Both the position numbers and the translations under genes were made by a program. From Escherichia phage Bp7: DNA of 64,000 bases. The notes beneath the pieces were generated by a model that ran no database searches, was not told the origin of the DNA, and worked only from the letters and a program-made list of their open reading frames with translations. Location: the sequence record NC_019500.1; one strand, given 5' to 3'. The number at the start of each line of letters is the position of its first letter. Position 1 is the first letter of the stretch. This document shows, piece by piece, positions 27,865 to 53,167 of this stretch.

Positions 27865-28422
27865 ATGACCGAAATTAAACTGACTAAAAATAACTATGTA
27901 AATAATAAGGAGCTTCTGAAAGCTATCACCCAATGGAAAACAGAACTCAGAGAAAATACCGATCCTAATAAAATAGTTCGCCAGAACGACGTTATCGGCT
28001 TGGCTATTATGCTCATTGCTGAAGGACTAAGTAAACGTTTCAACTTCTCAGGATATACCCAATCTTGGAAGCAAGAAATGATTGCTGATGGAATCGAAGC
28101 TTCGATTAAAGGTCTTCACAACTTCGACGAAACAAAATACGACAACCCACATGCATATATCACTATGGCTTGTTTTAATGCCTTCGTTCAGCGTATCAAA
28201 AAAGAACGTAAAGAAATGGCAAAGAAATATAGCTACTTCGTCCATAATGTCTATGACAGTAATGATGACGACATGGTAGGTATTGCAGATGAAACCTTTA
28301 TCCAAGATATCTACGACAAAATGACTCAGTATGAAACCTCTTTAACTAAAGCACCAGGGTCTGATAAGAGTGCCGAACCTAAAGTTGGTGAACTGGATTT
28401 TTTATATGGAACATCAGATTAA
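27865..28422 (+). CDS. 55: late-transcription sigma factor gp55
   Basis: 185 aa, same length as T4 gp55; position upstream of gene 47. Confidence 0.85.
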
Positions 28423-29430: not shown

Positions 29431-30453
29431 ATGAAAATTTTGAATATAGGTGATTTGCATATCGGAGTAAAAGCCGATGACCCTTGGATTCAGGAAATCC
29501 AGCTTAACGGTATTAAACAGGCTGTAGAATATTCTAAAGCAAACAATATTGATACATGGATTCAATATGGTGATTGGTTCGATGTACGCAAGGCTATCAC
29601 CCATAAATGTATGGAATTTAATCGTGGTCTGGTGGAAATTATCAGCGATGCAGGTATTAAAGTCCATGTTATAATTGGTAACCATGATGCAACGTTTAAA
29701 AATAGCATAACTCCTAATGCGGTTTCTGAACTTCTTACTCAGTATGAAAATTTTACTGTTTACGAGAAACCTACTACTGTTAATTTTGATGGCACCGAAA
29801 TTGATTTGATTCCATGGATGTGTGAAGAAAACACGACCGATATCATGGACCATATCAAAAATACTACTGCCGATTTCTGTATTGGCCACTGGGAATTAAA
29901 TGGTTTCTATTTCTATAAAGGAATGAAATCACATGGTTTAGAACCTGATTTCCTTAAGAAGTATAAGCAAGTATGGTCTGGTCACTTCCACACCATTTCT
30001 GATGCAGCAAACGTCAAGTATATTGGTACGCCATGGACCCTGACTGCAGGTGATGAGAACGACCCTCGTGGCTTCTGGATTTTCGATACAGAAACCCATA
30101 AAATGGATTTCATCATCAATGAAACTTGTTGGCATCGTAAGATTCATTACCCGAATGCGACTATCGATTACAAAGATTTTACAAATATTGCGGTTCGTGT
30201 TATAGTCGATAAAATTGATGACGGGCTTACTAAGTTCGAATCTGAACTTGAAAAGGTTGTTCACTCTTTACGTATTGTGTCTAAGGTAGATAACAGTGTT
30301 GATATCGATGATTCTGAAGAGGAAGATGAAGTTAAGTCCCTCTTGGATATGATGTATGATTATATCGATGCCCTTCCTGATGGCCACACTGAAGACGATG
30401 TTAAAGCCCTTAAGACCATGGCTGCACAACTTTATAATGAGGTTACACGATGA
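29431..30453 (+). CDS. 47: recombination nuclease subunit gp47 (Mre11-like)
   Basis: 340 aa; phosphoesterase motifs DLHIG, GDWFD, GNHD, GHWE. Confidence 0.9.
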   Translation: MKILNIGDLHIGVKADDPWIQEIQLNGIKQAVEYSKANNIDTWIQYGDWFDVRKAITHKCMEFNRGLVEIISDAGIKVHVIIGNHDATFKNSITPNAVSELLTQYENFTVYEKPTTVNFDGTEIDLIPWMCEENTTDIMDHIKNTTADFCIGHWELNGFYFYKGMKSHGLEPDFLKKYKQVWSGHFHTISDAANVKYIGTPWTLTAGDENDPRGFWIFDTETHKMDFIINETCWHRKIHYPNATIDYKDFTNIAVRVIVDKIDDGLTKFESELEKVVHSLRIVSKVDNSVDIDDSEEEDEVKSLLDMMYDYIDALPDGHTEDDVKALKTMAAQLYNEVTR

Positions 30454-30713: not shown

Positions 30714-30912
30714 ACATGATTTTCATATTGGCGATGGCTGGTTCGGTAATGTAGAATGGGACGTGGATGGTTCTTGGTATACCGGAACTATGTATGTCAC
30801 TTCTGGATATTCTGAAGGTGTTTCATGGGCCATGGAACTTGACGACGTGTTTGCTTCTTCCGAAGAAATGCTAGAATATGCCGAACAAACAATTCGTGAG
30901 AACAATACATGA
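30697..30912 (+). CDS. hypothetical acidic protein (71 aa)
   Basis: ATG 30697 overlapping upstream gene end. Confidence 0.45.
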   Translation: MTKMYKHDFHIGDGWFGNVEWDVDGSWYTGTMYVTSGYSEGVSWAMELDDVFASSEEMLEYAEQTIRENNT

Positions 30913-32586
30913 AGACTTTTAAGTTAAAGAAAGTAACGTATAAAAATATCATGTCAGTAGGCCAACAGCCTATTACAATCCAACTTGATAAGGTCCAAAA
31001 GACCTTAGTCACAGGTAAAAATGGTGCAGGGAAATCTACGTTCCTTGAAGCTGTTACATTTGCTCTGTTCGGTAAGCCTTTTCGTGATGTTAAGAAAGGG
31101 CAATTAATTAACTCAAGTAACAAGAAAGACCTTTTGGTCGAACTGTGGATGGAATATGATGGCAAAGAATACTACATCAAACGTGGGCAAAAACCGAACG
31201 TTTTTGAAATCTCTTGTGGCGGTGAACGTCTTGATGAATCTGCCAGCAGTAAAGACTTCCAAGCAGAATTTGAACAGCTTATCGGAATGTCCTATGCAAG
31301 CTTCAAACAGATTGTCGTTCTTGGCACGGCAGGGTATACCCCCTTCATGGGTTTGTCAACCCCAGCGCGTCGAAAGCTGGTGGAAGACCTTTTAGAGGTT
31401 TCTGTATTAGCGGATATGGATAAGTTGAACAAATCTTTGATTCGTGAGACTAATAGCCAAATCCAGGTGATAGACGTTAAACAGGATTCTATTACCCAAC
31501 AAATTAAAATTTATAATGACAACGAAGAACGTCAACGTAAATTATCTGGCGAGAACGCGGCACGACTACAAACAATGTATGATGAGCTCGTTAAAGAAGC
31601 CAGGACTGCGAAGGGCAATATAGAAAAACTAACTGATGAATTACTCAATGTCATCGTCGATGATGACCCTAGCGACTCCATGAGTGACCTGAGTAATAAA
31701 GGATTTGCAATCAAGAATGATATGGCAACCTTTACGAAGGTCGTGAAATTATACGAAACTGGTGGCAGCTGTCCTACATGTATGCAAGGATTGGAAGAAC
31801 ACGGGAACATCCTTACTAAAATTAAGGATAAGAACTTTGAGCTTCAAAAATCTTTGGATAAGATTAATGAGCAATACCAAGAGCTCAAACTTATTAAAGA
31901 CCAAGTAACCGAACAACGTAATAAAGCGCTGGCTATTAAATCTCAGATAGCTACTCATAAGCAACAAGCCATTACTGCCGTAGAGAAAGCTAAAAAAGTT
32001 AAAGTATTAATCGACCAAGCAGCTGCTGAGTTCGTAAGTAATGCCGAAGAGATTGCCGCGCTTCAAGCAGAGCTTGATAAAATCGTCTCTACCAAATCCA
32101 CATTGGTAATGGAAAAATATCATCGTGGAATTCTGACAGAATGTTGAAGGATACTGGTATTAAAGGTTCCATTATTAAGAAATACATCCTATCTTTAATA
32201 AGCAGATAAATTCTTATTTGAAGATTATGGAAGCCGACTACGTCTTTACACTAGACGAAGAGTTCAATGAGACGATTAAATCACGTGGACGTGAAGACTT
32301 TAGTTATGCTTCATTTTCACAGGGTGAGAAAGCACGTATTGATATCGCACTACTTTTTACATGGCGTGATATTGCTGAAAAAGTCAGTGGAGCCACATTA
32401 GTACATTAGTGTTGGATGAAGTTTTGATGAGCAGTTGACGCTGAGGCTGTTAAGGCGATTGCAAGTATTCTTAATAATCTTGAAGACAGTAATGTTTTTA
32501 TAATCAGCCACAGGGACCATGACCATCAAGCATATGGCCAGCATTTACAAATGAAAAAGGTTGGTCGATTTACAATTATGGAATAA
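30909..32586 (+). pseudogene. 46: recombination ATPase gp46 (Rad50/SbcC-like), 3-prime end disrupted
   Basis: Walker A GKNGAGKST and zinc hook CPTC are intact to 32147; C-terminal SQGEKARIDIALLF, LVLDEV and ISHRD are spread over shifted frames with an 8-bp tandem duplication at 32395-32410. Confidence 0.75.
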
Positions 32587-32591
32587 GCCTC

Positions 32592-33308
32592 TTATTGAGG
32601 CTTCATTTTACAGTTATCGAAATGCCAACGATTCATATTACCGGAATTCCCTTGTTTACCACAATGAGGGCATTCTACCTTCTTTTCTGATTTTTTGCGC
32701 CCGTTAGGATTTTTCTTACAAAAAACTTTATGAGCCGCAATAACACAGGATTTTCCTGAAAGGCCGCAGAATTCACATTCCACAATTTTATAGACCATGT
32801 TTTCTAGGCCTTTCTTTATTTTTAATTTTTGCTCCTCAGATATAGAGCGGTCCACTTTATTAGGGCCTTTAGGGCAGTTATCGAAATGCCATCTGTTCAT
32901 ATTGCCTACCAATCCAGTTTTACCGCAGTGTGGACAGGTAACTCTAGGCTTTTTTAAAGCGGAAATTGACATTTTCTTTCTGGTTTCTTCCGAGAATTCT
33001 TTATCCTTTTGGACTTCTGAATTCTTACGACGAAGCCATCCAAATAATTTATTTTTAGACCTATCAGCTTTTGGTGAGCTAACTGTCATCATTCTTGCTG
33101 CATAGACTAACGATGCATTATCTGGATGGATTTTAACTAACAACTGATGAGCCAAGTAATGTTCTTCAGGTGTTAAGTCTACCAAGTTTAAAGCGTCGTC
33201 CGTTCCACCCATGCATTGTGGTATAATGTGATGACGTTCTTTATAGGTAGTTAAATTTCTATTAACTGCTCGTTGAATAAGCTTTTCGTATATTGATTTA
33301 TAATTCAT
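32592..33308 (-). CDS. HNH homing endonuclease (Mob-like)
   Basis: Minus strand; HHIIPQCMGG...N...H HNH motif plus repeated CPHCGK...NMNRWHFDNC zinc-binding modules; ATG 33308 after AAGGA. Confidence 0.8.
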   Translation of the reverse strand: MNYKSIYEKLIQRAVNRNLTTYKERHHIIPQCMGGTDDALNLVDLTPEEHYLAHQLLVKIHPDNASLVYAARMMTVSSPKADRSKNKLFGWLRRKNSEVQKDKEFSEETRKKMSISALKKPRVTCPHCGKTGLVGNMNRWHFDNCPKGPNKVDRSISEEQKLKIKKGLENMVYKIVECEFCGLSGKSCVIAAHKVFCKKNPNGRKKSEKKVECPHCGKQGNSGNMNRWHFDNCKMKPQ

Positions 33309-33351
33309 TATCAAATCCTTATTTGATACAGCGACCGATAAAGATATTTAT

Positions 33352-33546
33352 ATGGCTTCCAATTTTATAACAGGCCAGCATTTGTTGGCCGTTCCTGAAC
33401 TAAAGCGGTATGTTTTAGTTAATAACTTCTCTGGAGACGAACATCTTGTTACTGAAGATTATCTCCGAAATGCTTTTAAGTCAGAGTATGATAGAATCAT
33501 GTCGAACAGGAATCCTGCCTGGTTCGTTTATGAATACTTTGATTAA
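33352..33546 (+). CDS. hypothetical protein (64 aa)
   Basis: ORF upstream of rpbA. Confidence 0.4.
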   Translation: MASNFITGQHLLAVPELKRYVLVNNFSGDEHLVTEDYLRNAFKSEYDRIMSNRNPAWFVYEYFD

Positions 33547-37448: not shown

Positions 37449-37466
37449 GGGACTTCGGTCCCTTTT
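37449..37466 (+). terminator. rho-independent terminator
   Basis: GGGAC-TTCG-GTCCC followed by TTTT. Confidence 0.7.
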
Positions 37467-37524
37467 GGAGTATAATGATTCATCAACAAACAAAAGACAA
37501 TCACTCGTCTATAAAGGAAATGAA

Positions 37525-40236
37525 ATGCAAGAATTCTATTTGACAGTCGAACAAATCGGTGATAATATTCTCGAACGTTACATCGATAAAAATGGTAACG
37601 AACGTAGTCGTGAAGTTCCATACAAGCCTACAATGTTTATGCATGCTAATCCAGAGCAAGCCGTAAAATACATTGATATCTACGGTAAGGGTTGTGTTAA
37701 GAAAGAATTCGACTCTATGCGTGATGCATCCCAATGGATGAAACGTATGGACGATATGGGTCTCGAAGCCCTGGGTATGGACGACTATAAATTAGCCTAT
37801 TTGTCTGATACCTATCGTAAAGAAATCAGATATGATTCTTCTAAGATTCGTATTGCTAACTTCGACATCGAGGTAACATCTCCTGATGGATTCCCTGAAC
37901 CAGCTCAGGCTAAACATCCTATCGATGCCATTACCCACTACGACTCGATTGACGATAAATTCTATGTATTCGACCTTTTAGTTTCGCCTTATGGTACTGT
38001 TGAAGAGTGGTCGATTAAAATCGCTGAGAAACTCCAAGACGAAGGCGGTGACGAAGTTCCACAAGAAATCATTGACAAAATCGTTTATCTTCCGTTTAAT
38101 TCTGAAGAAGAAATGATGCTTGAGTACTTGAATTTCTGGCAACAGAAAACTCCTGTGATTTTGACTGGATGGAACGTTGAGTCGTTTGACGTACCATACG
38201 TTTATAACCGTCTGAAAAATCTGTTCGGTGAGAACACTGCTAAGCGATTAAGCCCACATCGTAAAACTCGTGTTAAAGTTATCGAGAACATGTACGGTGC
38301 TCGTGAAATCATTACATTGTTCGGTATCTCTGTTCTGGATTATATCGACCTGTATAAAAAATTCAGCTTTACCAACCAGCCTTCTTATTCTCTGGATTAT
38401 GTTTCTGAATATGAATTGAAAGTAGGTAAGTTGAAATATGATGGCCCAATCTCCAAGTTACGTGAGACGAACCACCAACGATATATTTCCTATAACATTA
38501 TCGACGTATATCGTGTAGTGCAGATTGATATGAAGCGTCAGTTCATTCTTCTGAGTTTGGACATGGGTTATTATGCCAAGATGCAGATTCAGTCGGTGTT
38601 CAGCCCAATTAAGACTTGGGACGCTATTATCTTTAATAGCCTTAAAGAACAAGGCAAGGTAATTCCACAAGCTCGCTCACACGTGGTCCAACCTTATCCT
38701 GGTGCTTTCGTTAAGGAACCGATTCCTAACGCTTACAAATATGTAATGAGTTTCGACCTTACATCTCTGTATCCGAGTATCATTCGACAAGTGAATATAA
38801 GCCCAGAGACCATCGCAGGGACATTCGCTAACGCACCGATACATGAATATATTGCCGGAACTGCTCAGCGTCCTAGCGACACCTACAGTTGCTCTCCTAA
38901 CGGCATGATGTACTATAAAGACCGTGAAGGTGTGATTCCGACAGAAATCACCAAGGTATTCTTGCAGCGTAAAGAACATAAAGGTTACATGCTTGCAGCT
39001 CAACGTAATGGTGAGTTAATTAAAGAAGCATTGGAAAATCCTAATCTCTCAGTTGATAGTCCACTGGATATCGATTATCGTTTTGACTTCTCTGACGAAA
39101 TCAAAGCCCAGATTAAAGCACTGTCAGCGCCTTCTTTAAGAGAAATGTTGAAGAAAGCCGAGCTCACTGAAGTTGCAGGTAACACTGCTCAGATTAACCG
39201 TAAGTTGCTTATCAACTCCCTTTACGGTGCACTTGGTAACGTATGGTTCCGTTACTATGACCTCAGGAACGCAACTGCAATCACACTGTTTGGTCAAATG
39301 GCCCTCCAATGGATTGAACGTAAGGTTAACGAATATCTGAATAGCGTGTGTAAGACTGAAAATCAGAAGTTCGTGCTCTATGGTGATACTGACTCCATTT
39401 ATGTTAAGGCAGATGCAATCATCAATAAAGTAGGCGAAGATAAATTCCGTGACACTAACCACTGGGTCGACTTCTTAGATAAATTTGCACGTGAACGTAT
39501 GGAACCAGCTATTGATGCAGGCTTCCGTGAGATGTGTGAGTACATGAACAACAAACAACACTTGATGTTCATGGACCGAGAAGCTATCGCTGGTCCTCCA
39601 CTTGGTTCTAAAGGCCTTGGTGGATTCTGGACAGGCAAGAAACGTTATGCACTTAACGTTTGGGACATGGAAGGTACTCGTTATGCCGAACCACACTTGA
39701 AAATCATGGGTCTCGAAACTCAGAAATCAAGTACACCTAAAGCAGTTCAGAAAGCTCTGAAGGAATGTATCCGTCGTATGCTTCAGGAAGGCGAGGCATC
39801 TTTGCAAGAATATTTCAAACAGTTTAATAAGGAATTTAACGAACTCGATTATGTAAGCATTGCAGCAGTATCCAGTGCTAACAACATCGAGAAATATAAT
39901 GAAGGTGGATTCCCTGGCTCTAAATGTCCGTACCACATCAAAGGTTGCTTAGCTTACATGCGTGCTTCTGCAGGTGATTTGACTATGCCTCGTATCGTTG
40001 ATGGTGAAAAGGTATATGTACTGCCGCTTAAAGAAGGCAACCCGTTCGGTGAAGCTTGTATGGCATGGCCGTCAGGTATTGAACTTCCGGTTCAGATTCG
40101 TGACCAAGTCCTCCGTTGGATGGACTACAACGTACTGTTCCAAAAGACCTTTATCAAGCCTCTGACTGGTTTTACTGAGTCCGCTAAAATCGACTACGAG
40201 AAAAAAGCAACATTATTTGACATGTTTGACTTTTAA
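37525..40236 (+). CDS. 43: DNA polymerase gp43 (family B)
   Basis: 903 aa; N-terminus MQEFYLTVEQIG and exo/pol motifs (FDIEV, YGDTDS, KKRY) as in RB69/T4 gp43; in-frame upstream extension from 37465 rejected. Confidence 0.97.
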   Translation: MQEFYLTVEQIGDNILERYIDKNGNERSREVPYKPTMFMHANPEQAVKYIDIYGKGCVKKEFDSMRDASQWMKRMDDMGLEALGMDDYKLAYLSDTYRKEIRYDSSKIRIANFDIEVTSPDGFPEPAQAKHPIDAITHYDSIDDKFYVFDLLVSPYGTVEEWSIKIAEKLQDEGGDEVPQEIIDKIVYLPFNSEEEMMLEYLNFWQQKTPVILTGWNVESFDVPYVYNRLKNLFGENTAKRLSPHRKTRVKVIENMYGAREIITLFGISVLDYIDLYKKFSFTNQPSYSLDYVSEYELKVGKLKYDGPISKLRETNHQRYISYNIIDVYRVVQIDMKRQFILLSLDMGYYAKMQIQSVFSPIKTWDAIIFNSLKEQGKVIPQARSHVVQPYPGAFVKEPIPNAYKYVMSFDLTSLYPSIIRQVNISPETIAGTFANAPIHEYIAGTAQRPSDTYSCSPNGMMYYKDREGVIPTEITKVFLQRKEHKGYMLAAQRNGELIKEALENPNLSVDSPLDIDYRFDFSDEIKAQIKALSAPSLREMLKKAELTEVAGNTAQINRKLLINSLYGALGNVWFRYYDLRNATAITLFGQMALQWIERKVNEYLNSVCKTENQKFVLYGDTDSIYVKADAIINKVGEDKFRDTNHWVDFLDKFARERMEPAIDAGFREMCEYMNNKQHLMFMDREAIAGPPLGSKGLGGFWTGKKRYALNVWDMEGTRYAEPHLKIMGLETQKSSTPKAVQKALKECIRRMLQEGEASLQEYFKQFNKEFNELDYVSIAAVSSANNIEKYNEGGFPGSKCPYHIKGCLAYMRASAGDLTMPRIVDGEKVYVLPLKEGNPFGEACMAWPSGIELPVQIRDQVLRWMDYNVLFQKTFIKPLTGFTESAKIDYEKKATLFDMFDF

Positions 40237-40298: not shown

Positions 40299-40535
40299 AT
40301 GGAAGCTTTAATCGTTAGTGCTGGTGTTTTAGGATTCGGTTCTCTGGTTATTATGTTCATCGGTTACTTTTTACCATGGATTCTGGCTCTTCTGCGAGGC
40401 ACTCGTAGTAATGTCGGAATTTTCTTCCTTAATCTCCTGTTAGGCTGGACGATGATTGGTTGGGTAGTGGCTTTAATCTGGGCCATCGTCGCTGAACGTA
40501 AATCAAACGCTCAAATCATTATTGTTAAACAATGA
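40299..40535 (+). CDS. imm: immunity (superinfection exclusion) membrane protein Imm candidate
   Basis: 78 aa, two transmembrane helices, directly downstream of gene 43 as in T4. Confidence 0.7.
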   Translation: MEALIVSAGVLGFGSLVIMFIGYFLPWILALLRGTRSNVGIFFLNLLLGWTMIGWVVALIWAIVAERKSNAQIIIVKQ

Positions 40536-40676: not shown

Positions 40677-41177
40677 ATGAAAAAGTTAATTATCGCAATG
40701 AGTATGCTCCTATCAGGTTGCGCAGTCCAGTACGGTGATGCAGTTTCGGCTGATGAAGTTGGTAAAGCTCGTATCGCAGCTGAACAGAAACAATTCGATG
40801 GCGAAATGAAATTCCGTGCAGGTTCAGGACTTGTGTATACCCGAGCTAATAATCAATGTGGTAATAACTGTGCAAAATATGCTCAACGAGAAATTGAATT
40901 CCAACGTGAACAAGAGTCTAAGCGTGAAGCGGTACTAGCCAAACGCCAGGCAGAAATGAAGCGCCAAGATGATTTGTATAAAAAGCAGAAACTGTATGCG
41001 ATGTGCGTAAACCATATCAATCTACAGATTTCTATCCATGAGGCTCGTTATTACGAAATGCTCGAAACCGAAAGCTTTGATAAGGCCCGTGATTATAAGA
41101 AACAAATCAATAAGCTCAAGACCAAAGTGCCGGCAGCAATAGAACAGTGCATCGAAATCGGTAAAGATAAGATTTAA
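40677..41177 (+). CDS. lipoprotein (166 aa)
   Basis: Signal peptide with lipobox LLSGC; mature part charged and helical. Confidence 0.6.
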   Translation: MKKLIIAMSMLLSGCAVQYGDAVSADEVGKARIAAEQKQFDGEMKFRAGSGLVYTRANNQCGNNCAKYAQREIEFQREQESKREAVLAKRQAEMKRQDDLYKKQKLYAMCVNHINLQISIHEARYYEMLETESFDKARDYKKQINKLKTKVPAAIEQCIEIGKDKI

Positions 41178-41237
41178 GCAGTATCAATTTATTAAAAATA
41201 GTGTATAATGTACCTACATTCACTTGAGGAACAGATA

Positions 41238-42911
41238 ATGAAAAAGGTTGTTATTTTAGGCGCAGGTCTTGGCTCACGGTTGTATCCAATTACTAACGAA
41301 ATCCCGAAGGTATTGGTTAACTACAAACAACATACAGTACTAAAACATTTGTATGATTTGTATAGTAACCAATCAGATGAAATCATTTTGGTAATTCATA
41401 GCAAATTTAATGACCTTGTTAAGGGTTACATTAAATCCATTAACATGATTACCAGTGATAAGCCTAAATTCATTATTCGTAACGTAGATGTTGCCAATGG
41501 TTCAGCTCATGCTATCGATTGCATTGCTGAAGATATCATCGGGCACAACGTCCTGTTTAACTGGTGTGACATCATTCCTGAGGGTCATAAAGTTGAGTGG
41601 GATAACGACTACTGTTATACCTACGGGACTGACTGTCGTTTTACATTTGAAGAACCGTATTTGCGTGAAATTGGTACCGGCGGTGGTGTGGTTGGTTTGT
41701 ATCAGGTGGCTAATTGGACAGGTTTCGACCGTTCTAATTATGGTGAAGACCTTGCCGACAACCTGGATTCGATGGTCTATTTGACTGAACGTAAGCTGGA
41801 CTTTGTAGTTGATGTAGGTGACAAACTGAAACTGGCTAAGGCCCATGAAGATTCCGAAATTAACCGTGAATTTAATAAATTAGAGTTCACTGAGAATCTG
41901 GCTATTAAAGTACCAACTAACGAATTAGGTAAAGAAATCCAATCTAAAGAAATCAATTGGTACAATTCTATTGATTCTGAATTCGTTCCGAGCATTGTAG
42001 ACTTTGCTCCAGGTGAATTCATTAAAATGGAACGTATCTTTGGACGCACCATGGCAGATGCCTACCGGTTTATGTCTAAAGAAACTAAAGTCCTCATGGT
42101 TTATAAGGTCATTAGTGCATTACGTTCATTTGGTGGAACCATCGATAATCCATCTGATGAGCAATGGTATTCTGATGTTAAGAAAGAAGTATTGGACAAG
42201 GTCCTTATTCGTAATGCTTCTATTGCTGGATTGATTGAAGGCTTTGCTCCACAGGGCATTACCCATGTCAATGACTTTAAGGTAGGCGACCCGGAAAAAC
42301 TTCTTCGTCACGCCTTAGAAATTCTGTCTGAACATAAAGAACCGTACCAACTTATTCATGGCGACCCGCACTACAGTAATATTATGTTGTCGGACGAAGG
42401 TAATATTAAAATCATCGACCCACGTGGTTATTTTGGTAATAGTTCTAAAGGCCCTGCGATTTATGATGAAGCTAAGGTGCTTTATTCTATCGATGGCTAT
42501 GACAAATTTAACTCTGACCCTCTATGGGGTGGCTTAACTCGTAACGGAACTCGTGTATTCGTTGATATTGAAAAGGTTATGCCTTTAGATGATATTCCAA
42601 TGTGTACATTTAAGCACAAGCTCTGGATTGCTGTTATCTGGATGGCACTGGCAGGTTACTTTAAAAATAACCCTCTGAAAGCTCTGGGTGCTTATTACAA
42701 TGGGCTATATCAACTGAGTGTGCTGCTGAAGCGGCATCCTCGTAAGCGTAAGCTTATCACAGGTGAATTCGTCGATGAAGTTCGCGACCCTATCACGGCT
42801 CAAATTATCACTCGTTGTCCTGATAAGTGGGTTTTGCTTGACCAGGAAACTGGTGTAAAATATAAACCTACAGGTTCTACCGAACTCCACAAACAATGGA
42901 AGAAAATTTAA
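41238..42911 (+). CDS. bifunctional sugar-1-phosphate nucleotidyltransferase / anomeric kinase-like protein (557 aa)
   Basis: N-terminal ILGAGLGSRLYPITNEIPKVLV (NDP-sugar pyrophosphorylase signature); C-terminal HGDPHYSNIML...IKIIDPRGY (APH/choline-kinase-like catalytic motifs). Confidence 0.7.
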   Translation: MKKVVILGAGLGSRLYPITNEIPKVLVNYKQHTVLKHLYDLYSNQSDEIILVIHSKFNDLVKGYIKSINMITSDKPKFIIRNVDVANGSAHAIDCIAEDIIGHNVLFNWCDIIPEGHKVEWDNDYCYTYGTDCRFTFEEPYLREIGTGGGVVGLYQVANWTGFDRSNYGEDLADNLDSMVYLTERKLDFVVDVGDKLKLAKAHEDSEINREFNKLEFTENLAIKVPTNELGKEIQSKEINWYNSIDSEFVPSIVDFAPGEFIKMERIFGRTMADAYRFMSKETKVLMVYKVISALRSFGGTIDNPSDEQWYSDVKKEVLDKVLIRNASIAGLIEGFAPQGITHVNDFKVGDPEKLLRHALEILSEHKEPYQLIHGDPHYSNIMLSDEGNIKIIDPRGYFGNSSKGPAIYDEAKVLYSIDGYDKFNSDPLWGGLTRNGTRVFVDIEKVMPLDDIPMCTFKHKLWIAVIWMALAGYFKNNPLKALGAYYNGLYQLSVLLKRHPRKRKLITGEFVDEVRDPITAQIITRCPDKWVLLDQETGVKYKPTGSTELHKQWKKI

Positions 42912-43270
42912 TGCATCTGTGTTTTGATATCGATAATACCATTACTCACTGGCAAGATGACCGTGATTACGAAAACTTTAAACCGGACACCGAAATGGTG
43001 TCCATGATTAATAAGCTTTATGATGAAGGGTACGAGATTACCTTGTTCACTGCCCGTGGTATGACTTCATGCGGCCCAGGTCGAATCTTGGTTGAAGTAG
43101 TTCCTGCATTAGTTAAGAACCTTGAAAAGATTGGATTGAAATATCACAATCTGCTTACACATAAGCCGAGTTATACTTTTATCATCGATGACCGAGCAAT
43201 CCGTCCTGACCACTTTAAAGAAATGGTTCGTGAAGGAACTCTTGAAACCTATAAGGCATATCATCCGTGA
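42911..43270 (+). CDS. HAD-superfamily phosphatase (119 aa)
   Basis: HAD motif I FDIDNTIT at the N-terminus; small capless HAD size; ATG overlaps upstream stop. Confidence 0.6.
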   Translation: MHLCFDIDNTITHWQDDRDYENFKPDTEMVSMINKLYDEGYEITLFTARGMTSCGPGRILVEVVPALVKNLEKIGLKYHNLLTHKPSYTFIIDDRAIRPDHFKEMVREGTLETYKAYHP

Positions 43271-43803
43271 AACCAAAAATCATTGTTATCGACGGCCCGG
43301 ATAATTCCGGGAAGTCTACTTTAATTGAATCACTTTTATCTGATAAGAAATATCGTCTTATTGATTTCCCTAAAAAGATTAATGGCAAATGCATTTCATT
43401 AGGGACTGATAATGACAAGGCTTTAGTCGAGACGTTGTATAAGTTTTTAGACCCTAATTTTGTCTACATCTTAGACCGTGGGTATCCTAGTAATATTGTT
43501 TACTCTGGATTCCTTCGTGGTGAAATGGACCCTTATGTAGAACTGGAAGATTGGAAAGGGTTTAAATCTGAATTCAATATTATTGAGGTTATTTTAACCC
43601 GTAATCCACTGGATAAAGACTTTGAAGATGACCTTATTAAATTAACCAAAGATGAGTTCAACCTAACTATCCGGCAATATGAAACATGTTTTGAAAACGT
43701 GTTTAAAATCTTAAATCACGACGGCCATAATAACTTGCTTAACGTCGATATGGTAGAATTAAAACGTCTGAATGAATATATTGAAAATAAGGTGAATAAA
43801 TGA
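43267..43803 (+). CDS. P-loop nucleotide/nucleoside kinase-like protein (178 aa)
   Basis: GTG start overlapping upstream stop; IVIDGPDNSGKST Walker A typical of dNMP/thymidylate-kinase-like enzymes. Confidence 0.55.
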   Translation: MKPKIIVIDGPDNSGKSTLIESLLSDKKYRLIDFPKKINGKCISLGTDNDKALVETLYKFLDPNFVYILDRGYPSNIVYSGFLRGEMDPYVELEDWKGFKSEFNIIEVILTRNPLDKDFEDDLIKLTKDEFNLTIRQYETCFENVFKILNHDGHNNLLNVDMVELKRLNEYIENKVNK

Positions 43804-44498
43804 AACACATTACCGCTGTTAGTTTTGAAAACGCGTTTAAGCAAATGAACGAAGAAATCCTGGAAGCTCCACAGTTTGCAGTTGATTCTCGTATCGGCCG
43901 TTGTTATGAAATTGGTTCTGCTTCGGTAGAAGTACTGGATGCAAGCACCTATAAATTCACCGACCCTCGTATTAATCGTATCAACTATGATTATGCCGAA
44001 TCTTTCTGGAAGTTTATGATTTCTGGTGGTACTGACGCCACCGAAGCATTTAAGGAATACCCTAATGTTGCTAAGTTCATTGATAAGCCGAAAAGTGACG
44101 TATTGCCTGCAAACTTCAACACTTTCTATGGACCTAGAATTGTGGCCCAACTCCCAGCCCTACTTAAAGAGCTTAAAGAAAAGCCTAACTCGAGACGAGT
44201 TGTGTTCCAAATTCTCCAAGAACAAGACCAAGCCCTCCTTGATTCTGACGAATCCTTAGAATATCCATGTACCGATTCGGTGACATATTATATTCGTGAT
44301 GGACGTCTGTATGCACACACCCATATGCGTTCACAGAACTGTGCTATCGTTATGCAGCTGGATTTCTATCTGCAGGGTAAACTGATGGCCTTTATTGCTG
44401 AACAGTGTGGTGTTGGTCTGGGTACATATTCCCATACTATGGTTAGTGCACATGTATTTGAACGTGATTTTGACTACGTTCGAGGATTCCTGAAATGA
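43800..44498 (+). CDS. 42: dCMP hydroxymethylase gp42 (thymidylate-synthase fold)
   Basis: 232 aa; EYPCTDSVTYYIRDGRLYAHTHMRSQN resembles the catalytic-Cys region of T4 gp42. Confidence 0.8.
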   Translation: MKHITAVSFENAFKQMNEEILEAPQFAVDSRIGRCYEIGSASVEVLDASTYKFTDPRINRINYDYAESFWKFMISGGTDATEAFKEYPNVAKFIDKPKSDVLPANFNTFYGPRIVAQLPALLKELKEKPNSRRVVFQILQEQDQALLDSDESLEYPCTDSVTYYIRDGRLYAHTHMRSQNCAIVMQLDFYLQGKLMAFIAEQCGVGLGTYSHTMVSAHVFERDFDYVRGFLK

Positions 44499-45388
44499 GT
44501 TTGTTTATCGTTCCTATTTTCAGTATGCGTAGTTACGAAACAGGTGAATATGCCGTCCTTAAGGACGGTAATTTTCAACTCCATTTAAACCGTGCTTGCC
44601 CAGGTGATTATCTGGCTTATCCTAGAAATTCGAGCGATATCAAAGAATGCATTGAATTATTTCCTGAACTGAATTTTGTACCTCTTTGGTATAAAGAAAA
44701 TGCTTATGAAACTCGTAAACATTTTTGGTCTGAAAATGAGTTCGTTGTTGATTCGTTAATCGAATACTATGACTGCTCAGGATTGGTAACCGATATCACA
44801 GGTTATGAGGGTACCCAGACTGTACAATTCAACTTTAACATTACAATGGACCCTGAAGTTCCTCGTTATTATATTGATGAGTTCATTGATATCGACGTGT
44901 CTTCAGTTGAACGTTCGATTTATACTACAGTCTTGAATCAATGTCAGAAAGACGTCCTGGTGACACGAGGTGCGTCCTCTGATAAGATTTTTGTAGACCA
45001 AAAGGTAATTAATCCGGCAGTAATTGAGCGTTACTCTGAAGGTCTAGCGCCTATTAAAATTGATGGTATTTTCCATCCATTCCGTATCTCTGATAAATGC
45101 TATCAATTCGAAAGAGTTGTAGACCAAGCTGCGGCTGAAGGTTCTCGCCTTTATATCACCGATCCGAATGATTCATTTAAACGTGAAGACTATCGTCCTG
45201 ATGTAGAGATTATTAAATTCAAACCGAGTAAGGTTGAATATTATCAGATTCTGAAATCAAGACCTCATATCATTTATCATGAGAATCCTGGTTTAGTATT
45301 CCATCCAGGTCTAGCCGAATTCATTTATTTCGGTGCCCATATCCATTCTGAGCACGAAATGCCAAGTTATGAGGACGTGGTCCTTTAA
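44495..45388 (+). CDS. hypothetical protein (297 aa) in the position of T4 beta-glucosyltransferase
   Basis: ORF between gene 42 and uvsX; no recognisable GT-B signature by eye. Confidence 0.6.
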   Translation: MSLFIVPIFSMRSYETGEYAVLKDGNFQLHLNRACPGDYLAYPRNSSDIKECIELFPELNFVPLWYKENAYETRKHFWSENEFVVDSLIEYYDCSGLVTDITGYEGTQTVQFNFNITMDPEVPRYYIDEFIDIDVSSVERSIYTTVLNQCQKDVLVTRGASSDKIFVDQKVINPAVIERYSEGLAPIKIDGIFHPFRISDKCYQFERVVDQAAAEGSRLYITDPNDSFKREDYRPDVEIIKFKPSKVEYYQILKSRPHIIYHENPGLVFHPGLAEFIYFGAHIHSEHEMPSYEDVVL

Positions 45389-45465
45389 CGCTGTAAATGT
45401 GAAGTGATATAATTACCCTATCTTAAAACGTGAGTAAAATATAATGATGCCTATGGAAAAATATA

Positions 45466-46647
45466 ATGTCTGATTTAAAATCCCGTTTGATTAAAGCTTC
45501 TACTTCTAAAATGACCGCCGACCTGACCAAATCTAAATTGTTTAATGGTCGTGACGAAGTTCCTACTCGTATCCCTATGCTGAATATTGCATTGGGCGGT
45601 GCGTTGAATGCAGGCTTACAATCAGGTTTGACAATCTTTGCTGCTCCATCTAAACACTTTAAAACGTTGTTTGGACTTACCATGGTTGCGGCATATATGA
45701 AGAAATATCCAGACGCAATTTGTTTGTTCTATGACTCTGAGTTTGGTGCTTCAGAATCTTATTTCCGTTCGATGGGTGTTGATTTGGAACGTGTGGTTCA
45801 TACACCAATCCAGTCAGTCGAACAGCTTAAAGTTGATATGACCAACCAGTTAGAAGAAATTACTCGTGGCGAAAAGGTTATTATCTTTATCGACTCCATT
45901 GGTAACACTGCTTCTAAGAAAGAAACCGAAGATGCTTTGAACGAGAAAGTTGTAGGTGATATGACTCGTGCTAAATCACTGAAATCTCTGTTCCGTATCG
46001 TAACACCTTATCTGACCATCAAAGATATCCCTTGTGTAGCAATTAACCACACGGCTATGGAAATTGGTGGAATGTACCCTAAAGAGATTATGGGTGGTGG
46101 TACTGGTATTCTGTACTCTGCTTCTACCGTGTTCTTTATCTCTAAACGTCAGGTTAAAGATGGTACTGAGCTCACTGGTTATGACTTCACACTGAAGGCC
46201 GAGAAATCTCGTACGGTTAAAGAGAAATCAACGTTCCCGATTACAGTGAACTTCGAAGGTGGTATCGACCCATTCAGTGGATTGCTTGAAATGGCTACTG
46301 ATATTGGCTTTGTCGTGAAACCTAAAGCTGGCTGGTATAATCGTGCATTCCTTGACGAAACCACAGGCGAAATGGTTCAAGAAGAAAAAGCATGGCGTGC
46401 TAAAGCTACCGATTGTGTTGAGTTCTGGGGACCGCTGTTTAAACATGCTCCGTTCCGTGAAGCAATCGAGAATAAGTATAAGCTTGGTGCAATTAATTCT
46501 ATTAAAGAAGTTGACGATGCGGTAAATGACCTTATTAACTCTCGTGTCTCTAAGAACGTTGCTGTTAAATTAAGCGGAAATACCCAAAGCGCCGCTGATA
46601 TCGAAAACGATTTAGAAAATATGAATTTTGTGAGCGACCATGACTGA
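45466..46647 (+). CDS. uvsX: recombinase UvsX (RecA-like)
   Basis: 393 aa; N-terminus MSDLKSRLIKASTSK near-identical to T4 UvsX; Walker A AAPSKHFKT. Confidence 0.95.
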   Translation: MSDLKSRLIKASTSKMTADLTKSKLFNGRDEVPTRIPMLNIALGGALNAGLQSGLTIFAAPSKHFKTLFGLTMVAAYMKKYPDAICLFYDSEFGASESYFRSMGVDLERVVHTPIQSVEQLKVDMTNQLEEITRGEKVIIFIDSIGNTASKKETEDALNEKVVGDMTRAKSLKSLFRIVTPYLTIKDIPCVAINHTAMEIGGMYPKEIMGGGTGILYSASTVFFISKRQVKDGTELTGYDFTLKAEKSRTVKEKSTFPITVNFEGGIDPFSGLLEMATDIGFVVKPKAGWYNRAFLDETTGEMVQEEKAWRAKATDCVEFWGPLFKHAPFREAIENKYKLGAINSIKEVDDAVNDLINSRVSKNVAVKLSGNTQSAADIENDLENMNFVSDHD

Positions 46648-52651: not shown

Positions 52652-53167
52652 ATGGCTCATTTTAACGAATGTAGTGGTTTGATTGCAGGTGTTGATAAAG
52701 CTGAGGAAGCTTATGTTAGTGCAATTACCAAAGGTATCGACCCACTGCAGGTTATGCTTGATATGCAGAAATCTTTACAGGTTCGTCTGGCTAATGACCG
52801 TGATTATTGTTACCACCCGGATAAACTGGCTACTGCAGGTGATGTTGTTGGATGGATGCGCGAACAGAAAGACTGCATCGATGATGAATTCCGTGAACTT
52901 CTGACTTCACTTGGTGAAATGTCTAAAGGTGAGAAAGATGCTTCTGCCGTCTGGAAAAAATGGAAGGCACGTTACCCAGAAGCTCAGTCTAAACGTATTG
53001 ATGAAATGAGCCCTGAAGACCAGTTGGAAATTAAATTTGAACTTGTGGACATAATCCATTTCGTATTAAACATGGTTACAGGTCTTGGTATGACTTCTGA
53101 AGAATTGTTCAAACTTTATTATCTGAAAAATCTTGAAAATTTCAAACGTCAGGACAATGGGTATTAA
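52652..53167 (+). CDS. 56: dCTP pyrophosphatase gp56
   Basis: 171 aa; strong similarity to T4 gp56 (MAHFNEC..., EQKDCIDDEFRELLTSLG, MSPEDQLEIKFEL). Confidence 0.9.
   Translation: MAHFNECSGLIAGVDKAEEAYVSAITKGIDPLQVMLDMQKSLQVRLANDRDYCYHPDKLATAGDVVGWMREQKDCIDDEFRELLTSLGEMSKGEKDASAVWKKWKARYPEAQSKRIDEMSPEDQLEIKFELVDIIHFVLNMVTGLGMTSEELFKLYYLKNLENFKRQDNGY

Follow-up and report, generated by a model that had tools for sequence, protein, structure and literature searches.

The closest described relatives of the locus studied here are found in phage RB69 (Mosigvirus), in which gp45-gp55, together with gp3, form a cytosine-arabinosylation cluster (PMC6024577, PMC13326640). Roles for these genes were proposed in 2018 by Thomas et al. 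in a study that also named gp43 of phage IME08 and reported that RB69 gp53 and gp52 are a single gene split by a sequencing error (PMC6024577). RB69 DNA was first described as containing arabinosyl-hydroxymethylcytosine (ara-hmC) (PMC6024577), but this assignment has been explicitly withdrawn, and the modification is now arabinosyl-5-hydroxycytosine (PMC13326640, PMC13390438). RB69 gp48 makes 5-hydroxy-dCMP (5hodCMP) with the help of O2 and a flavin, and LC-MS and 18O2 labelling show 5hodC (PMC13326640). RB69 makes both mono- and di-arabinosyl 5-hydroxycytosine (5hoC), and its cluster corresponds to the Afh genes that He et al. 2026, as cited by others, describe in phage HY126. The RB69-type pathway was elucidated between 2018 and 2026, with gene roles resolved in 2025-2026, and Lee et al. 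(NAR 2026, PMC13326640) list Dhakaviruses among the genera carrying a syntenic cluster. Shewanella phage Thanatos-1 has a related gene set, TH1_060-TH1_065 (PMC12838424), and is reported to be mono-arabinosylated (Lee et al., PMC13326640).

A five-gene cassette between the DNA polymerase gene and uvsX

The window analyzed here, 64,000 nucleotides of Escherichia phage Bp7 (NC_019500.1), shares 97% DNA identity with JS98/IME08/QL01-type phages and belongs to the genus Dhakavirus. An initial annotation had proposed a hypermodification module at the position that gene 42 and beta-gt occupy in T4, and the homology of five encoded proteins to the RB69 cluster supports this. All six open reading frames of the interval it marked out are present on the plus strand at the coordinates given (Table 1). 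The five proteins pair one for one with members of the same five families (fusion, HAD, Tmk-like kinase, 5hodCMP synthase, and first GT-B transferase) at the same locus in RB69, at 37-79% identity: 44% and 41% to gp53 and gp52 for the fusion, 62% to gp51 for the HAD protein, 37% to gp45 for the kinase, 79% to gp48 for the synthase, and 68% and 63% for the 297-aa protein to gp47 and gp46, likewise a single gene. Stop/start overlaps connect the five genes (TAATG, GTGA, ATGA, and ATGA), the second formed by the GTG start of the kinase gene and the HAD stop codon. We consider it likely that 41238-45388 is one translationally coupled cassette for making arabinosylated 5-hydroxycytosine DNA. By analogy to RB69-type phages, such a modification should make the genome resistant to restriction enzymes and to certain CRISPR systems. 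Because Lee et al. (PMC13326640) already list Dhakaviruses as carriers, the novelty is low, and the cassette represents an already explained system.

Table 1. Features of the Dhakavirus cassette and associated genes, with window coordinates
Feature	Coordinates	Strand	Basis
AfhE-type sugar-activating fusion, 557 aa	41238..42911	+	Pfam NTP_transferase + APH; RB69 gp53:52
AfhF-type small cap-less HAD phosphatase, 124 aa	42896..43270	+	motifs; phrog_1238; PDB 9IQW; RB69 gp51
Thymidylate-kinase-like P-loop kinase, 178 aa	43267..43803	+	Walker A; phrog_761; RB69 gp45
5-hydroxy-dCMP synthase, 232 aa	43800..44498	+	Pfam Thymidylat_synt; RB69 gp48
Predicted GT-B arabinosyltransferase, 297 aa	44495..45388	+	phrog_3891; RB69 gp47:46; AF2 model
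gp56-type dCTPase/dUTPase	52652..53167	+	Pfam dUTPase_2; outside the reported locus
Predicted lipoprotein, 166 aa, outside module	40677..41177	+	signal peptide + lipobox; phrog_1754

The cassette differs from that of RB69 in both order and content. The kinase gene lies between the HAD and synthase genes, whereas in RB69 it adjoins uvsX, and the RB69 gp55 isomerase, gp50 (Peptidase_U32), gp49, and the second transferase gp3 had no counterpart in the window or in QL01, of which all but the last 528 nt was covered. Thanatos-1 proteins are 44% (fusion), 57% (HAD), 71% (synthase), 51% (transferase), and 45% (kinase) identical to their Dhakavirus counterparts. In the roughly 6 kb flanking the fusion gene on each side, Thanatos-1 likewise has one glycosyltransferase candidate, and no isomerase was found there. 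In contrast to Dhakavirus, Thanatos-1 retains a U32 gene, TH1_065, which shares 79% identity with RB69 gp50, and it encodes a longer HAD protein (196 aa compared to 124 aa).

[quoted passage not shown] No sequence similarity to T4 alpha-gt or beta-gt was detected; neither gave a tblastn match in the window or the near-complete QL01 genome. Only a-gt.4 and a-gt.2 homologs lie between gene 55 (27865-28419) and gene 47 (29431-30453), in agreement with the earlier observation that the T4 glucosyltransferases are absent and that alpha-gt is missing from this interval.

The modified base

The 232-aa protein matches Pfam Thymidylat_synt (E 4.8e-14) and had been annotated as the gene 42 dCMP hydroxymethylase, with hydroxymethylcytosine as the acceptor base. 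Its gene does occupy the gene 42 slot, the superfamily is the same, and its match to T4 gp42 is weak yet significant (E 4.6e-6); the original description of RB69 DNA also speaks for this reading. Identity to T4 gp42 is nevertheless only 25% over 159 aa, compared to 79% to RB69 gp48, a proven 5hodC maker (PMC13326640), and PDB 9IQU/9IQC/9IR2 are matched with E 1.5e-125. In the alignment, Cys146 is retained, with L143E, D169N, and N177D changes. D169N is the published diagnostic of 5hodCMP synthases, and in vivo tests confirmed nine more such enzymes (PMC13326640); all verified 5hodCMP synthases have Asn at this position, whereas the Asp is retained in T4 gp42 and in the phage’s own td. Given also the withdrawal of the RB69 ara-hmC assignment, sugar decoration of hmC following a gene 42-type hydroxymethylase is extremely improbable and close to refuted. 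By homology, the product of 43800-44498 is near-certainly a thymidylate-synthase-superfamily enzyme that hydroxylates dCMP at C5 in a flavin/O2-dependent reaction. The identity to the RB69 enzyme together with D169N therefore predicts that the base is 5-hydroxycytosine with an ether-linked sugar.

Two other proteins may act on the nucleotide. The 178-aa kinase contains a Walker A motif (GPDNSGKS, 10-17) and DRG (70-72), belongs to a family labelled ‘thymidylate kinase’, and is 76% identical to Marfavirus EK29 gp97. It is most likely a dedicated kinase for modified dCMP, which is the least certain role in the cassette; the RB69 gp1-type dNMP kinase already phosphorylates 5hodCMP. The gene at 52652-53167 (dUTPase_2, E 6.9e-7) is the positional equivalent of QL01 gp027, ‘gp56 dCTPase’, and judging from this homology is an accessory step in dCMP supply and dCTP removal.

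Activation of the sugar

The 557-aa fusion exceeds the curated Pfam cut-offs for both NTP_transferase (E 7.5e-8) and APH (E 8.6e-6), with a nucleotidylyltransferase domain at approximately residues 1-205 and an APH/choline-kinase-like kinase domain at approximately 210-500. The motifs G10-x-G-x-R14...P23-K24 and H374-G-D376...N381, D394 are invariant across 46 homologs. Structure prediction, suggested earlier as one check of four of the proteins, gave a fusion model (AF2, pLDDT 92.9) with RmlA/MurU and APH folds: Foldseek matched the N-terminal domain to RmlA, HddC, MurU, and GalU and the C-terminal domain to APH(2'')-IIIa (3tdv). LicC, along with MurU, is among the structural/sequence matches of the N-terminal domain. 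A Shine-Dalgarno sequence, GAGGAA, precedes the start at ATG 41238; compared to this, the alternative start at ATG 41208, inside TATAATG, is unlikely.

The HAD protein carries the motifs D11-I-D13-N-T15, FTARG (51-55), and IDD (97-99) and matches PDB 9IQW (E 2.8e-53) and 1XPJ (E 2.8e-12). Its family, phrog_1238, is wrongly labelled ‘phosphoheptose isomerase’. The QL01 annotation begins the gene at an alternative start codon, at 42911 within the TAATG overlap.

We predict that the fusion is an arabinose-5-phosphate 1-kinase and UDP-arabinofuranose pyrophosphorylase and that the HAD protein is an arabinose-1,5-bisphosphate 5-phosphatase. The idea that a kinase, a phosphatase, and a nucleotidyltransferase together yield an NDP-sugar donor is supported by homology and domain matches. 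Its analogy to AmgK/MurU and LicA/LicC is apt insofar as an APH-like kinase is followed by a nucleotidyltransferase to give an NDP-activated donor; in Dhakavirus, however, the two are fused, and the fusion is a member of neither family. The analogy also does not extend to the substrate. According to He et al. 2026, as cited in PMC13326640, kinases of this type phosphorylate C1 of arabinose-5-phosphate, after which the HAD enzyme strips the 5-phosphate, an extra step needed because the sugar is already phosphorylated at C5. A tie of the fusion family to arabinose-5-phosphate is independently supported by gene fusion and adjacency: metagenomic proteins P0192 and P0214 combine HAD, SIS, nucleotidyltransferase, and kinase parts in a single chain, with the SIS part 32% identical to the RB69 isomerase, and on a 315-kb phage-like contig a SIS gene that shares 48% identity with this isomerase lies immediately upstream of a fusion homolog.

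The glycosyltransferase candidate and the proposed pathway

No Pfam family was found for the 297-aa protein, nor any Pfam domain in its homologs (0 of 117), and profile comparisons with T4 beta-gt and RB69 gp3 showed no similarity. Its AF2 model (pLDDT 94.9) has a two-Rossmann GT-B fold, matched by Foldseek to UDP-GlcNAc 2-epimerases, MshA (3c4q), and BshA (E approximately 1e-6, TM 0.5-0.6). The other large open reading frames of the window do not match a glycosyltransferase Pfam family. This protein is the sole glycosyltransferase candidate found in the genome and is predicted to be the first (base-proximal) arabinosyltransferase; the suspicion raised by its location in the beta-gt slot is thus borne out at the level of a transferase candidate. 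Lee et al. found single glycosyltransferases inactive on 5hoC DNA, and first transfer on the mononucleotide and on DNA were not distinguishable (PMC13326640); we found no reconstitution of the first arabinosyl transfer in the literature surveyed.

A conflict with the transferase role comes from Thanatos TH1_063, 51% identical to the 297-aa protein, which was reported to form UDP-xylose from UTP and xylose-1-phosphate in vitro (PMC12838424). The 297-aa protein could accordingly be a UDP-pentose pyrophosphorylase, with transfer performed by the fusion or another enzyme, and transferase activity for its family was not found in the literature surveyed. We judge this very unlikely: the model matches UDP-sugar transferases and epimerases and has no nucleotidyltransferase fold, the fusion already supplies a canonical nucleotidyltransferase domain, and the genome would be left without any transferase candidate. 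Contamination with host GalU could account for the TH1_063 result.

With the 297-aa protein as the transferase, the whole pathway probably consists of a 5hoC base branch, a UDP-arabinofuranose branch, and a GT-B joining step. The gp56 dCTPase would deliver dCMP, and the thymidylate-synthase homolog would hydroxylate its C5 to form 5-hydroxy-dCMP. This may then be phosphorylated by the Tmk-like kinase and/or a gp1 dNMP kinase encoded beyond the window, and the phage polymerase would insert the modified nucleotide instead of dC. In the sugar branch, for which we rely on homology to RB69 gp52:53/gp51 and to HY126 AfhE/AfhF as the literature describes them, the C-terminal domain of the fusion would phosphorylate D-arabinose-5-phosphate at C1, the HAD enzyme would remove the 5-phosphate, and the N-terminal domain would convert arabinofuranose-1-phosphate and UTP to UDP-arabinofuranose. 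Finally, fold, synteny, and homology suggest that the GT-B enzyme attaches arabinose to the 5-hydroxyl as an ether-type O-glycoside.

Identity and number of sugars

The earlier guess of an RB69-like ara-hmC fits in its sugar, since all five proteins are RB69 homologs, but not in its base. Arabinose, as in RB69, is most likely the sugar. An arabinose-5-phosphate isomerase, a U32-family gene, and a second glycosyltransferase were not found in the window or near-complete QL01, and we therefore predict mono-arabinosyl-5hoC, rather than the mono- and di-arabinosyl forms of RB69, made from host arabinose-5-phosphate. The single glycosyltransferase points to one sugar, and the missing isomerase to host KdsD/GutQ as the probable source. 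E. coli produces arabinose-5-phosphate constitutively for Kdo synthesis through these enzymes. The literature surveyed contains no chemical analysis of virion DNA from a Dhakavirus.

Since no isomerase was found and the fusion shares only some 42% identity with its RB69 counterpart (41-44%), the pathway could instead draw on a different host sugar phosphate, for example ribose-5-phosphate or a xylulose-derived one, and decorate 5hoC with another pentose or derivative. In Thanatos, the adduct was read as a deoxypentose, in addition to the UDP-xylose formed in vitro (PMC12838424). This alternative is unlikely, as the transferase (63-68%) and phosphatase (62%) resemble their RB69 counterparts much more closely than the fusion does, and the SIS-isomerase fusions link the enzyme family to arabinose-5-phosphate, which the host makes constitutively. 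Moreover, no isomerase was found in the Marfavirus and Thanatos clusters either, over about 6 kb around the fusion gene, and Thanatos is classed as mono-arabinosylated by Lee et al. (PMC13326640).

Left boundary of the cassette

The module had been drawn from 40677, to include the 166-aa open reading frame. This protein has an N-terminal signal peptide and lipobox (LSGC), belongs to a phrog of unknown function, and has no credible Pfam family (best MTBP_mid, E 0.0077, 15.7 bits compared to a cut-off of 25); no homolog was found in the RB69 cluster region. In the sister genus, Gaprivervirus VR20 has a 50%-identical homolog between imm and uvsX, in the order 43-imm-166aa-uvsX with nothing between, and the whole cassette is missing at the same site. 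Judging from this gene order, the 166-aa open reading frame is not part of the module, and the left edge at 40677 was wrong. The DNA homology of VR20 to the window ends at 40972 and restarts at 45403.

The cassette consists of five coupled genes

The locus is a run of ORFs flanked by the DNA polymerase and UvsX genes (table). The initial annotation assigned 40677-45388 to a candidate hydroxymethylcytosine (hmC) hypermodification module replacing the T4 glucosyltransferases, and its domain calls for the cassette proteins are borne out by Pfam and PHROGs. The last five genes are coupled by stop/start overlaps (TAATG, GTGA, ATGA and ATGA) and, because of these overlaps, behave as one translational unit. 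A longer fusion ORF starting at 41208 was rejected: this start falls within a box resembling TATAAT, and the start codon at 41238 is served by a good ribosome-binding site and corresponds to the starts in RB69 and the Dhakavirus QL01. A scan for promoters and terminators gave signals no higher than expected from shuffled sequence and is given no weight here.

Features of the locus and their counterparts in the RB69 arabinosylation cluster
Feature	Position	Strand	Description	RB69 counterpart (identity)
DNA polymerase gp43	37465-40236		left flank of ORF run	
Imm	40299-40535	+		
45-aa ORF	between Imm and 166-aa ORF	+		
166-aa ORF, predicted lipoprotein	40677-41177	+	lipobox LSGC	
557-aa fusion ORF	41238-42911	+	Pfam NTP_transferase and APH	gp53 and gp52 (44% and 41%)
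124-aa HAD ORF	42896-43270	+	weak HAD signal	gp51 (62%)
178-aa ORF	43267-43803	+	P-loop, Tmk-like	gp45 (37%)
232-aa ORF	43800-44498	+	thymidylate-synthase family	gp48 (79%)
297-aa ORF	44495-45388	+	no Pfam family	gp47 and gp46 (68% and 63%)
UvsX	45466-46647		right flank of ORF run	

The left border of the module had to be moved. In VR20, a member of the sister genus Gaprivervirus, the gene order is 43, imm, a homolog of the 166-aa ORF (50% identical) and uvsX, with nothing between the last two, and nucleotide homology to the window stops at 40972 and restarts at 45403. This gene order and homology gap restrict the cassette to five genes, from 41238 to 45388. The 166-aa ORF was rejected as a member of the module, as Gaprivervirus has the ORF without the cassette, and it is a bystander. 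The predicted lipoprotein (VR20 homolog L009:5001-5504) is conserved between imm and the following gene in several genera besides Dhakavirus and Gaprivervirus, with or without the cassette, and this location next to imm suggests a possible role in the cell envelope or in exclusion. The entire cassette is missing from VR20 at an otherwise collinear locus (window 40972-45403), making Dhakavirus and Gaprivervirus a natural presence/absence pair for studying the cost and benefit of the modification.

The 4.7-kb region shares 93-97% DNA identity with the Dhakaviruses IME540, QL01, WG01, IME08, JS98 and JS10, and at least 80% of it is covered in 50 records in a nucleotide search. An RB69-like polymerase had been invoked as a link to arabinosylating phages; because RB69 is a Mosigvirus, the polymerase in the window is not specifically that of RB69.

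The modified base is predicted to be 5-hydroxycytosine

In RB69 and DLP3 DNA, arabinose is ether-linked to 5-hydroxycytosine (5hoC) (Lee et al., NAR 2026, PMC13326640). RB69 gp48 converts dCMP to 5hodCMP with O2 as the oxygen source and flavin as cofactor, and an Asn at position 169 of E. coli ThyA is diagnostic for this activity (PMC13326640). The 232-aa protein is a thymidylate synthase homolog (Pfam PF00303, E 4.8e-14), and the catalytic Cys in its YPCTD motif aligns with E. coli ThyA C146; the ThyA numbering was validated by the invariant residues C146, R166 and S167. At position 169, both the 232-aa protein and RB69 gp48 have Asn (RSQN), compared to Asp in E. coli (RSCD) and T4 gp42 (RSND; T4 Asp179); Asp169 is also retained in the phage's own thymidylate synthase. 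The 232-aa protein additionally carries N177D, affecting the dCMP specificity residue (QLD aligned to PFN), and the acidic substitution L143E (LEYPC aligned to ALAPC). The set of Cys146, L143E, D169N and N177D is exactly that of RB69 gp48.

Overall similarity follows the same division. The protein is 79% identical to RB69 gp48 over 231 aa, compared to 25% to T4 gp42 over 159 aa only, and similarity to T4 gp42 does not reach the level of orthology. In searches of PDB sequences, it matched 9IQU, 9IQC and 9IR2 with an E-value of 1.5e-125, versus 4.6e-6 for T4 gp42 (1B49). The 9IQU, 9IQC and 9IR2 sequences differ from RB69 gp48 at only a few positions and probably represent the enzyme that He et al. 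studied from HY126. The initial annotation had named this gene as gene 42, encoding dCMP hydroxymethylase. The slot and the superfamily were correctly recognized, but the label is chemically wrong because the signature at position 169 and the PDB E-values favor a hydroxylase. Judged from these residues, the base in the phage is predicted to be 5hoC, not hmC.

A fusion enzyme and a HAD phosphatase are predicted to make the sugar donor

The 557-aa protein is a single chain composed of an N-terminal sugar-1-phosphate nucleotidylyltransferase and a C-terminal APH-like kinase, as found by Pfam, where both domains pass the curated cut-offs, by AF2 modeling (pLDDT 92.9) with Foldseek, and by homology to RB69 gp53 and gp52 along its full length. 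Structure prediction recovered both folds: RmlA, HddC and MurU matched the N-terminal domain and the aminoglycoside phosphotransferase 3tdv matched the C-terminal domain. A profile of 46 fusion homologs matches HddC, LicC, GMPP, RmlA, GalU and MurU over its first ~150 positions, and the catalytic motifs of both domains (G10xGxR14, P23K24, H374xD376xxxxN381 and D394) are invariant across these homologs. In the 124-aa protein, which is of the AfhF/RB69 gp51 type of HAD phosphatase, HAD motifs I-IV are intact (DIDNT, FTARG, K90 and IDD), and it matches PDB 9IQW, from the same deposition series as 9IQU, 9IQC and 9IR2, with an E-value of 2.8e-53. The proposed logic of the module, in which a kinase, a phosphatase and a nucleotidyltransferase together make a sugar donor, was right. 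As outlined in the passages of PMC13326640 that cite He et al., the kinase domain phosphorylates C1 of arabinofuranose-5-phosphate, the HAD enzyme removes the 5-phosphate and the nucleotidyltransferase domain makes UDP-Araf.

Distant homologs lend indirect support, through gene fusion and adjacency, to arabinose-5-phosphate (A5P), ATP and UTP as probable substrates of AfhE-type fusions. In two metagenomic proteins, P0192 (922 aa) and P0214 (946 aa), HAD, SIS, nucleotidyltransferase and APH-like kinase domains are fused, the SIS part being 32% identical to the RB69 isomerase; the whole predicted route from ribulose-5-phosphate to NDP-arabinose would be present in a single protein. A gene encoding such a four-domain fusion (L013:14-2854) adjoins a sulfotransferase gene. 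In contig JACCDQ012122952.1 (L014:6297-9461), a SIS gene 48% identical to RB69 gp55 lies directly upstream of a fusion homolog. This 315-kb NCBI contig is jumbo-phage-like and has a Fapy-DNA-glycosylase-family gene nearby; no thymidylate synthase homolog was found near the SIS and fusion genes in the part of the contig covered.

A single candidate arabinosyltransferase

The 297-aa gene lies directly downstream of the synthase gene, with an ATGA overlap, and its family (117 homologs) has no Pfam domain. The AF2 model (pLDDT 94.9) has two Rossmann-like halves, and Foldseek matched it with a probability of 1.00 to UDP-GlcNAc 2-epimerases and to the GT4 enzymes MshA (3c4q) and BshA. Structure prediction thus recovered a glycosyltransferase fold, and the protein is modeled as GT-B; MshA 3c4q is also the top match of Lee et al. 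for RB69 gp46:47 (PMC13326640). The family profile found nothing among PDB sequences; fold comparison alone was informative. The common slot with T4 beta-gt raises the alternative that the protein is a diverged beta-gt. This was ruled out, because hhalign found no similarity between the family and T4 beta-gt (probability 0.1); none was found to RB69 gp3 either.

A different function has been reported for a homolog. Thanatos TH1_063 (L011:8961-9863), which is 51% identical to the 297-aa protein, was described as an in vitro UDP-xylose pyrophosphorylase (PMC12838424). This report conflicts with the arabinosyltransferase assignment by others and by the fold model here. A transferase role is more likely for the modeled 297-aa protein than a pyrophosphorylase role because the fold fits, the fusion already contains a nucleotidyltransferase and the genome is without another transferase candidate. 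Among ten large or unassigned ORFs in the window, Pfam searches found no second transferase, and T4 alpha-gt and beta-gt had no tblastn match in the window or QL01. As noted initially, alpha-gt is absent between genes 55 and 47, where only homologs of a-gt.2 and a-gt.4 are found.

The transferase may act on DNA or on nucleotides. Lee et al. observed no activity of single glycosyltransferases on 5hoC DNA, and whether the first transfer occurs on the nucleotide or on DNA could not be distinguished by the authors (PMC13326640). The Tmk-like kinase, 5hodCMP synthase and first GT-B enzyme form a translationally coupled trio in the window, and the three genes likewise lie side by side in RL38J1, an unrelated Rhizobium phage (Lee et al. 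Table 1, PMC13326640). A PDB sequence search with the Tmk-like kinase gave only marginal matches (YorR, E 0.033). One speculative and, in our judgment, improbable reading is that the trio acts on nucleotides ahead of replication: the transferase would convert 5hodCMP to ara-5hodCMP, a product too bulky for the general gp1 kinase and therefore left to the Tmk-like kinase for phosphorylation, and the polymerase would incorporate a dNTP that already carries the sugar. If true, it would be the first case of a DNA base glycosylated before replication, and the minimal Dhakavirus cassette, which has a single transferase and lacks an isomerase, would be the cleanest test system.

Dhakaviruses have the smallest version of a known pathway

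The system has already been described, and its chemistry is established by work from 2025-2026. RB69 and JS98 were previously found to have homologs of genes 42 and 56 and no glucosyltransferases (Petrov et al. 2010), the sugar genes were proposed by Thomas et al. 2018 (PMC6024577), and Dhakaviruses are among eleven genera with a syntenic cluster (PMC13326640). The literature searched contained no chemical analysis of DNA from a Dhakavirus. All five cassette genes have their best counterpart within RB69 gp45-gp55. RB69 gp53 and gp52 are a single gene that a sequencing error had divided, and the Dhakavirus protein IME08 gp43 is a full-length fusion homolog (Thomas et al. 2018, PMC6024577); gp47 and gp46 are also one gene (PMC13326640).

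What is new here is confined to one point: the pathway is at its smallest in this genus. Four RB69 proteins, namely gp55 (the SIS A5P isomerase), gp50 (Peptidase_U32), gp49 and gp3 (the second transferase), had no match in the window (64 kb) or in the QL01 genome up to its last 528 nt. In RB69, gp3 lies between rIIA and gene 39, whereas this interval in QL01 contains only two small ORFs. Host KdsD and GutQ are a source of A5P. From the missing isomerase and second transferase genes, we infer that the phage would take A5P from these host enzymes and add a single arabinose per cytosine. The smallest pathway version therefore leads to three predictions: one arabinose on each cytosine, reliance on the host A5P pool and possibly a requirement for oxygen. 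Like Dhakavirus, Thanatos has a single transferase, and it is classed as mono-arabinosylated (PMC13326640). Marfavirus EK29 and Thanatos-1 likewise yielded no A5P isomerase up to about 6 kb from the fusion gene; unlike Dhakavirus, both retain the U32 gene.

RB69 gp50 (L001:5493-6662; Pfam Peptidase_U32) shares 79-86% identity with its counterparts in the clusters of Marfavirus and of Shewanella phage Thanatos, a much higher conservation than that of the neighboring genes, and is missing from Dhakavirus. Among the members of the U32 family are RlhA and TrhP, C5 hydroxylases that work without oxygen, and UbiU/V. Because of these family members, gp50 could be an anaerobic route to 5hoC. It has been labeled a "sugar or heterocycle reductase" (PMC13326640).

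Our analysis supports the prediction of heavily modified DNA in JS98/IME08-type coliphages, a group employed in phage therapy. The DNA of the phage studied here should be resistant to many restriction enzymes and difficult to read by nanopore sequencing, and the response of the phage to modification-dependent defenses should differ from that of T4. In sum, the hypermodification module reported initially is real and its logic holds, but its base was misassigned.

Additional observations

RefSeq names in Dhakavirus homologs are misleading for 42896-43270 ("phosphoheptose isomerase"), 43267-43803 ("thymidylate kinase") and 43800-44498 ("thymidylate synthase"). The present analysis corrects the database annotations of these three cassette genes.

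Elsewhere in the window (30909-33361), gene 46, which encodes a Rad50-like protein, matches QL01 at 99% identity through 411 aa, after which the frame is lost and stops cover the Walker B region; over the final 133 aa, identity to QL01 is only 83%. Directly downstream is a 775-bp insertion (32588-33361) that is missing from QL01 and contains a 240-aa HNH-type ORF on the minus strand (32592-33314). The anomaly reflects either invasion by a homing endonuclease with a conversion tract or sequence errors.
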